Shown in pieces: positions 15,176-15,357 of a DNA stretch of 32,000 bases. The first letter of the stretch is position 1. Each line of letters starts with the position of its first letter. The stretch is taken from the NCBI GenBank assembly GCA_030668875.1, contig DAOVER010000010.1, positions 50,916 to 82,915 on the forward strand. Direction: 5' to 3'. The translations under genes were made by a program, and so were the position numbers. The stretch is from Candidatus Heimdallarchaeota archaeon (GTDB lineage Archaea > Asgardarchaeota > Heimdallarchaeia > Heimdallarchaeales > Heimdallarchaeaceae). Under the pieces are notes generated by a model. That model was given only the letters and a program-made list of their open reading frames with translations. It was not told where the DNA came from and did no database searches.

Positions 15176-15357
15176 CCTAGCAAGGATTTCAGGTTCGGAA
15201 TGAGTCTGAGTGTTACCCCTTCACTATGGCCGCGACGCATCGCAACGGGTGGCTTTTCCCAAGTCCTCTCGGAACATAGTACCAAGCCCTACGTGGAAGG
15301 ACTTAACTTTCCCGACCATCTGGAACGCATCCAGATGTATCTCTGACCTTACTAGGC
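15176..15357 (-). other. Predicted 5S precursor transcript closed by a 10-bp terminal stem with BHB-like sites
   Basis: CCUAGUAAGG (15356-15347) pairs with CCUUGCUAGG (15185-15176), then an AAU bulge and a UCAG/CUGA 4-bp helix. Confidence 0.8.
15187..15307 (-). rRNA. rrf: 5S rRNA, circularly permuted gene (canonical 3' half 15307-15240, UGCG linker 15239-15236, canonical 5' half 15235-15187)
   Basis: Minus strand reads GUUAAGUCCUUCCAC...GUAC...CCGAGAGG...GGGAA...GUUGCGA-UGCG-UCGCGGCCAUAGUGAAGGGGUAACACUCAGACUCAUUCCGAACCUGAAA. Helices I-V, loop C (CAUUCCGAAC), loop E and a GNRA loop D can all be paired by hand. Length 121 nt. Confidence 0.93.

Follow-up and report, generated by a model that had tools for sequence, protein, structure and literature searches.

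The 5S rRNA is a universal component of the ribosome, and its gene is normally trivial to find. In the closed genomes of Heimdallarchaeum, the 5S rRNA gene could not be predicted, according to the authors of those genomes (PMC8813620). The window studied here, a stretch of 32,000 nucleotides from a genome assembly of Candidatus Heimdallarchaeota archaeon, raises the question of whether such a gene is present in circularly permuted form and, if so, which form its RNA takes. A preliminary description, made from the sequence of the window, had placed the 3' half of a 5S rRNA, a UGCG tetraloop, and the 5' half in this order on the minus strand, and the sequence reads exactly so. The 3' half (GUUAAG...GUUGCGA, 68 nt) occupies positions 15307-15240, and the 5' half (UCGCGGCCAUAG...CCUGAAA, 49 nt) occupies positions 15235-15187. 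A paired leader and trailer stem and a 33-nt element (15340-15308), both absent from that description, also belong to the locus. In the order of transcription, its features are as follows.

15380-15386, minus strand: TATA-like box TTAAAAA, centred approximately 26 nt ahead of the point where the leader stem begins; position conserved in the congeneric loci.
15347-15357, minus strand: GCCUAGUAAGG, the leader side of the outer stem, paired with the trailer (15175-15185) in the RNAalifold fold.
15343-15346, minus strand: leader UCAG, one strand of the central 4-bp helix of the predicted outer bulge-helix-bulge (BHB) motif, with CUGA at 15189-15192 as its partner.
15340-15342, minus strand: 5' bulge AGA of the predicted outer BHB, unpaired in the consensus fold; predicted cut at 15341/15340.
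15308-15340, minus strand: 33-nt extra element, a candidate hairpin intron, with a stem (15337-15330 with 15324-15317), a GU spacer, CGGG at 15314-15311, and an AAA bulge at 15310-15308.
15240-15307, minus strand: 3' half of 5S, with the 3' strands of helices III (lower), II, and I, and domain IV/V; seen in the sequence, fold, covariation, and alignment.
15236-15239, minus strand: UGCG tetraloop, capping helix I at the position of the two ends of a normal 5S; traversed by RNA contigs.
15187-15235, minus strand: 5' half of 5S, with the 5' strand of helix I, loop A, helix II, helix III, and loop C; 3' end CCUGAAA.
15186-15188, minus strand: 3' bulge AAU of the predicted outer BHB, 3 nt in 16/16 species; predicted cut at 15187/15186.
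15175-15185, minus strand: trailer strand of the outer stem, CCUUGCUAGGU, from the consensus fold.
15170-15175, minus strand: run of six T residues directly 3' of the stem; position conserved.

The preliminary description had credited the unit with its own TATA box and U-tract, and both were found, TTAAAAA at 15386-15380 and the T run at 15175-15170, each conserved in position. Judged by its sequence, the box is the putative promoter of the permuted 5S gene, and the T run is likely to act as an archaeal transcription stop. The transcript seems to start at the outer stem and to end at the T run after the stem. Approximately 1.2 kb from the 5S locus and on the opposite strand, the window also holds a tRNA-Ser(GCU) gene (16513-16595, plus strand). 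Its reading as an intron-bearing gene was rejected, as the gene encodes an ordinary tRNA-Ser whose variable arm is long.

The identity of the locus was examined by database search, folding, and alignment. At the gathering threshold (38 bits for RF00001), the Rfam search found no 5S in the 32,000-nt window and none in the whole assembly, which bears out the expectation that standard annotators miss the gene. In a relaxed search, the window gave only a forced global match of 16.2 bits, and the RF00001 threshold was not reached in genomic order; the relaxed search of the whole genome gave a second, abutting match of 13.6 bits at the permuted locus. A score below the threshold in genomic order is expected because the gene is permuted. 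The preliminary description had expected two partial RF00001 hits in reversed order; this pattern did not appear, since the relaxed search forces global alignments, and the two matches of 16.2 and 13.6 bits abut. When the 5' half was placed before the 3' half, the re-ordered sequence folded without constraints into helices I, II, III, and IV/V at -36 kcal/mol, recovering the 5S shape with its five helices and three-way junction; in this order, the conserved sequences of loops A, C, and E are also in place. It also aligned end to end with the canonical-order 5S RNAs of Asgard archaea, with 82/117 identical positions and a score of 100, compared with 38 +/- 5 for shuffled sequences and 59 for the native order. 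The alignment crossed the joint between CCUGAAA and GUUAAG without a break. The claim that the rejoined halves give a normal 5S is thus supported by the unconstrained fold and the end-to-end alignment, as well as by the covariation described below.

The core of the gene was exactly 121 nt long in 16/16 complete congeneric loci, which were 80 to 95% identical. In all 16 congeners, the tetraloop was UGCG, UUCG, or UACG, and it was UUCG in family f4. Because the 16 congeneric loci all share the 121-nt core and the UNCG loop, the permuted layout is not a product of chance. For the covariation analysis, the 16 congeneric loci and one locus each from two other families were aligned on the 5S structure in permuted order. 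In this alignment, 99.0% of the cells could pair, and 22 of the 32 pairs showed changes on both sides. None of 500 shuffles reached as high a value, and pairing fell to 26 to 47% when the partners were slid. The locus is a genuine 5S rRNA gene that is conserved and circularly permuted, and the observation of such a gene in the window is confirmed.

A permuted locus of this kind could also be a pseudogene, the relic of a rearrangement, or an artefact of assembly, with the real 5S gene in the unassembled part of the genome. The state of the assembly (3.2 Mb in 99 contigs, 92% complete) gives this explanation some room. The relaxed RF00001 search of the whole genome found no other 5S-like locus in the assembly. 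The distribution of the gene was investigated using R1, a covariance model of 5S in permuted order that was built for this analysis. R1 gave full-length matches in 78/82 genomes of the class, representing 17 of its 18 genera, so that the search for the same order in related genomes, proposed in the preliminary description, succeeded. In an even sample of the phylum, 78/150 genomes had full-length matches, including genomes of many families outside the class. There was no R1 match in the sampled genomes of families f11, f17, and f20, and all five of these genomes had a canonical RF00001 match of 49 to 80 bits. R1 is therefore specific for the permuted order, being silent in families whose genomes carry canonical 5S. 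Five single-contig genomes with R1 matches, two of them from Heimdallarchaeaceae and three from other Asgard families, had no RF00001 match above the cut-off anywhere. These closed genomes carry the permuted gene and lack canonical 5S, and the argument that the real 5S is merely unassembled thus fails for the relatives. A canonical 5S gene elsewhere, which the preliminary description would have taken against itself if it alone were expressed, was found neither in the assembly nor in the five closed relatives, and the permuted locus is the only 5S-like locus in all of them. The gene for the 5S-binding protein uL18 is present in the genome. Considering that the same layout recurs through the class, that the covariation is strong, that the core is exactly 121 nt in all 16 complete congeneric loci, and that RNA contigs confined to the core attest its expression, we regard a relic or artefact as extremely improbable.

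Additional copies of the permuted gene were observed in some genomes. In family f4, one genome (G020; contigs C77, C90, C106, and C132) carries four permuted copies and another (G022) has them in five places, several at contig ends, which suggests that the multicopy 5S of this family is a repeat that breaks assemblies. A second copy in genome G030 (L072, G030:C43:238967-239086) scored 98.6 bits with R1 compared with 134.5 bits. This copy is altered at conserved places, with CCUAAAA for CCUGAAA and UUCUGAAC in loop C, and may be decaying.

Next, we examined whether the two halves are joined in RNA. Assembled contigs of two runs (X1 and X2), which belong to different metatranscriptome studies of sediments, were aligned to positions 15130-15400. 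The contigs come from congeners of this strain, with 0 to 13 differing letters per piece. They covered positions 15187-15307 only; leader, trailer, and 33-nt element had no depth at all. The joint 15307->15187, at which the alignment goes back 121, was present in both runs, in agreement with the earlier expectation of RNA crossing 15187->15307, here in assembled contigs of congeners. In X1, a 113-nt contig with a depth of 29 extended across the joint. In X2, a 151-nt contig matched 15233-15307 and then 15187-15262, passing through the UGCG loop, with both of its ends on 15233-15262. A length of 121 + 30 letters is the form that a 121-nt cycle takes in a 31-mer graph, indicating that this contig is cyclic. 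A further 151-nt contig, found in X1, shares this layout, with 60 letters left unmatched between the matched ends; it is apparently from a more distant relative. The position of the joint is ambiguous by 4 letters because GAAA stands before both cut sites, and within this ambiguity it fits the break at the AA bulge of helix III that the preliminary description had named. No genomic locus that was inspected, and no full-length R1 match, had the joined order, and DNA carry-over therefore does not account for the joint. Two other runs (X11 and X12), from the study of the best DNA source, gave no contig on 15130-15400 and count neither way.

These results make us highly confident that the joined form exists. 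A different outcome of processing would be a linear, permuted mature 5S, cut at the bulges and left unligated, with a nick in helix III. Although permuted and unligated 5S RNAs are present in the mitochondria of brown algae (PMC4267664), the contigs of two studies cross the 15307->15187 joint, and we consider an unligated 5S very improbable here. The preliminary description had placed a permuted or covalently closed 5S in the ribosome; the RNA contigs favour the closed form over the permuted linear form, and residence in the ribosome is the part of that claim which we infer. Assembled contigs carry no information on abundance, ends, RNase R resistance, or ribosomal location.

The leader and trailer of the gene point to the way in which the joint could be made. 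In the RNAalifold consensus of 16 precursors, leader positions 15357-15347 pair with trailer positions 15185-15175. All 11 pairs of this outer stem are kept in 16/16 species, where G-C alternates with G-U and U-A with U-G. Next in the fold comes UCAG (15346-15343) on CUGA (15192-15189), and AAU (15188-15186) is left as a 3-nt bulge, so that leader and trailer are predicted to form a BHB layout. In the other genera of Heimdallarchaeaceae, the stem lies at the same place and its architecture is kept, with unrelated sequence. Families f3, f4, and f5 have the same motif geometry directly adjoining the mature start. The BHB rule is a cut after the second bulge base. Applied to both strands in f4 and f5, such a cut gives the canonical junction of CGGAA with GU; by this rule, the f3 locus would keep three bases at that point, not two. 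In the window, the end of the RNA cover at 15187 and the predicted outer cut at 15187/15186 lie at the same place. The mature start is 33 nt further downstream than the 5' bulge of the outer BHB, and a second, less canonical motif would therefore also be needed.

The genome encodes the enzymes that such processing would use. Two EndA paralogues (185 and 182 aa; G000:C71 and G000:C2), each with N and C domains, show the pattern expected of a heterotetrameric splicing endonuclease, the type with the most relaxed BHB recognition (PMC4731332). The RtcB ligase is also encoded. Its gene at G000:C91:83441-86293 (L034 and L035) matches profile positions 1-50 and 49-426 in segments approximately 1.5 kb apart within one 999-aa frame, which probably makes it an intein-bearing RtcB.

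According to the mechanism that we propose, a transcript of approximately 185 nt would start at the TATA-type promoter and stop at the T run. Its first and last 11 bases would pair and, together with the 4-bp helix and the 3-nt bulges, would form a BHB for the archaeal tRNA-splicing endonuclease. Cutting and RtcB-type ligation would join CCUGAAA (15187) to GUUAAG (15307). The joint would restore the broken 3' strand of helix III, and the old ends of the 5S would remain capped by the UNCG tetraloop. The product would be a closed ring of 121 nt with every feature of a normal 5S, taken here as the ribosomal 5S. We regard this route, from a permuted gene through BHB cutting and ligation to a ring that serves as ribosomal 5S, as the best explanation overall and as likely. 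Which enzymes act, in which order the cuts are made, and that the ring is the ribosomal form are points that we infer.

The 33-nt element must be accounted for in Heimdallarchaeaceae. All five genera of family f1 carry the element, both gene copies included, whereas families f3, f4, and f5 lack it. Its hairpin shows compensatory changes (CG to UA at 26:40 in 4 species, and further ones at 28:38 and 30:36), and the two bases between the hairpin and the central helix are paired in only about two thirds of the loci. We rejected the reading of this element as an expansion segment of the mature RNA, because the RNA contigs stop at 15307 and have a period of 121. The CGGG of the element, which is CAGG in some species, can form a helix with CCUG (15193-15190) that is shifted by one base relative to the outer helix and leaves AAA bulges on both strands. 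A cut after the second bulge base in this inner register joins CCUGAA to AGUUAAG and yields the observed 121-nt product. In a circular fold of a hypothetical ring of 153 or 154 nt, all four CCUG bases were on CRGG in 9/16 species, and three of the four were in 2 more. For the 154-nt ring of the present genome, helix III was preferred over the inner BHB in the lowest-energy fold. No exon-side flanking helix was found for the inner BHB.

Processing in Heimdallarchaeaceae could then proceed in two steps. In the first step, the outer BHB would be cut between 15341 and 15340 and between 15187 and 15186, and ligation would give a ring of 154 nt. This ring would make the hairpin continuous with the CCUG/CGGG helix on both strands, completing an inner BHB of the intron type. 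In the second step, cuts between 15188 and 15187 and between 15309 and 15308 would release the hairpin as a 33-nt intron. We lean towards two nested splicing-type steps of this kind for the removal of the element. They are the simplest reading that uses both motifs. The outer motif is conserved in the window and at almost all other loci, where the bases before CGGG are unpaired with the trailer. The 154-nt ring, the excised hairpin, and the ligated leader-trailer were not seen among the RNA contigs.

The same 121-nt ring would result if only the inner register, with CGGG/CCUG and the AAA bulges, were cut in the linear precursor. The outer stem and the hairpin would then only hold the ends at a three-way junction, the hairpin would leave with the leader, and the by-product would be leader, hairpin, and CGGGAA joined to the trailer, in which CGGGAA is followed directly by AUCCUUGC. 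The observed period of 121 nt fits cuts in this register. Furthermore, the second gene copies of two closed genomes, G034 and G035 (L070 and L071), have a plain, one-step BHB (GUGGU-CAGG-AAA with CCUG-AAA-ACCAC) with a flanking helix of its own (GUGGU/ACCAC), at the cut sites that are needed. In these copies, the outer NCAG motif is lost and the hairpin lies further upstream in the leader. The inner register is plausibly functional, since it is used alone there. At the locus of the window and almost everywhere else in the family, however, the bases before CGGG are unpaired with the trailer, which has the leader as its partner beside the conserved NCAG. This NCAG competes for the same CUGA, and families f3, f4, and f5 have the homologue of the outer motif as their only BHB. 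We therefore consider a single step in the inner register unlikely for the window, and continue with the two nested steps as the preferred reading. The two processing designs stand side by side in one genome in both G034 and G035.

A normal-order 5S with an insert at the same site was also observed. Locus L003:1501-1638 (G014:C117:8277-8414, minus strand) scored 48.3 bits and contains an insert of approximately 23 nt at the AA-bulge site of helix III. The insert consists of CACG-GAA, a 6-bp hairpin (CAGUCU AUCG AGACUG), and CGUG-AAA, followed by GUUAAAC, and looks like a BHB hairpin intron in 5S rRNA. Its layout is the same as that of the proposed inner BHB, and the neighbouring gene is a tRNA with a 46-nt intron. 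The reading of L003 as the normal 5S of this genus was rejected, as no similar 5S was present in 399 Asgard genomes and G014 also carries the permuted locus. The contig is probably foreign to the G014 metagenome-assembled genome, which has a contamination of 6%; the G+C content of the L003 flank (31%) matches that genome rather than setting the contig apart.

The closed 121-nt ring could be either the final form or an intermediate. In permuted tRNAs of Cyanidioschyzon, for which a known route is cited in PMC4267664, the ring is re-opened to give the normal ends. By analogy, the ring found here would be re-opened at the tetraloop, and the ribosome would hold a linear 5S with its ends in helix I. 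The contigs are compatible with such an intermediate in that they show neither ends nor relative abundance. On the other hand, the spacer is exactly four bases long and always UNCG in the genus and in f4, which fits a structural cap and not a processing site. In addition, words spanning the loop were frequent enough for contigs of two studies to close into cycles. To our knowledge, no enzyme that removes such a tetraloop has been described. We consider re-opening quite unlikely. The constant four-base UNCG spacer, with its fit to a structural cap, and the closure of contigs through the loop in two studies favour the ring as the final form, and it is fairly likely that the 121-nt ring is the mature ribosomal 5S. 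The complete picture, in which the ribosomes of Heimdallarchaeia and many other Asgard archaea carry a closed 121-nt 5S ring, made in Heimdallarchaeaceae through two nested splicings of which the first ligation builds the substrate of the second, is put forward tentatively.

We also compared the permuted 5S with known systems. The preliminary description had named no known gene-encoded permuted 5S rRNA; for archaea, this agrees with the literature searched in full text, in which we found no description of a permuted or purpose-made circular 5S. The nearest known parallel is found in Thermoproteus tenax and T. uzoniensis, whose SRP RNA is permuted and circular (Plagens et al. 2015, eLife, PMC4731332). 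In both cases, a universal noncoding RNA seemed to lack its gene, the gene is permuted and has its own TATA box, leader and trailer form a BHB, RNA sequences span the ligated ends, and the ring restores a functionally important helix. Both organisms also have a two-subunit splicing endonuclease and RtcB. In contrast to the SRP RNA, which is permuted in two species, the Asgard case concerns 5S rRNA, a component of the ribosome, and spans a whole class and much of a phylum. Moreover, Heimdallarchaeaceae add a putative second, nested BHB with a 33-nt hairpin, and cleavage by the endonuclease is predicted here.

In Cyanidioschyzon merolae, permuted tRNA genes (Soma et al. 2007, as cited in PMC4267664) likewise encode the 3' half first, have a BHB at the new ends, and, according to the same citing source, give a circular RNA by splicing-type cutting and ligation. 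That ring is re-opened to normal ends, whereas the old ends of the Asgard 5S are capped by a conserved UNCG that the contigs traverse. In brown algae, the mitochondrial 5S rRNA is permuted (Valach et al. 2014, PMC4267664), with helix I closed into a hairpin and the gene order changed, as in the present case. The break in the algal 5S is at the three-way junction, and its final RNA is permuted and linear, made without BHB or ligation (PMC4267664). The Asgard 5S is not of this type, as it is broken in helix III and its joined form occurs in RNA.

Circular rRNAs of other kinds are known from archaea. The 23S rRNA is circular or permuted in archaeal ribosomes (PMC12918454; PMC7758197). Its BHB cutting and ligation resemble the processing proposed here, and it remains circular or permuted in the ribosome; unlike the Asgard 5S, it has normal-order genes, and the usual processing stem gives rise to its ring. 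In Halobacterium and Sulfolobus, ordinary 5S rRNA has minor circular forms (PMC12558985), and like the Asgard forms, they are circular 5S-derived RNAs found by sequencing. Their ends vary, their genes are in normal order, and they are regarded as products of degradation (PMC12558985), whereas for the Asgard permuted gene, a ring is the only way to a continuous 5S.

A 2026 survey of archaeal rRNA circularisation stated that 5S processing is not known to involve circularisation (PMC12918454). The new element here is the occurrence of a permuted RNA with putative restoration through a BHB, a known principle, in ribosomal RNA and throughout a major lineage of archaea, with a putative nested hairpin intron in Heimdallarchaeaceae. 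The missing 5S of the Heimdallarchaeum genomes would be explained if their gene is permuted and its RNA is restored by ligation of the splicing type. The arrangement extends to essentially the whole class and about half of the 150-genome phylum sample, and R1 can be used as a covariance model by annotators. The results also pose a testable question, namely whether circular 5S is present in the ribosomes of the archaea that the cited papers place closest to eukaryotes. Together, the nested BHB and the intron-bearing normal-order 5S of L003 suggest a way in which permutations of this kind could arise from intron-bearing ancestors. Altogether, the moonlighting of the tRNA-splicing machinery would be extended from SRP RNA to ribosomal RNA.
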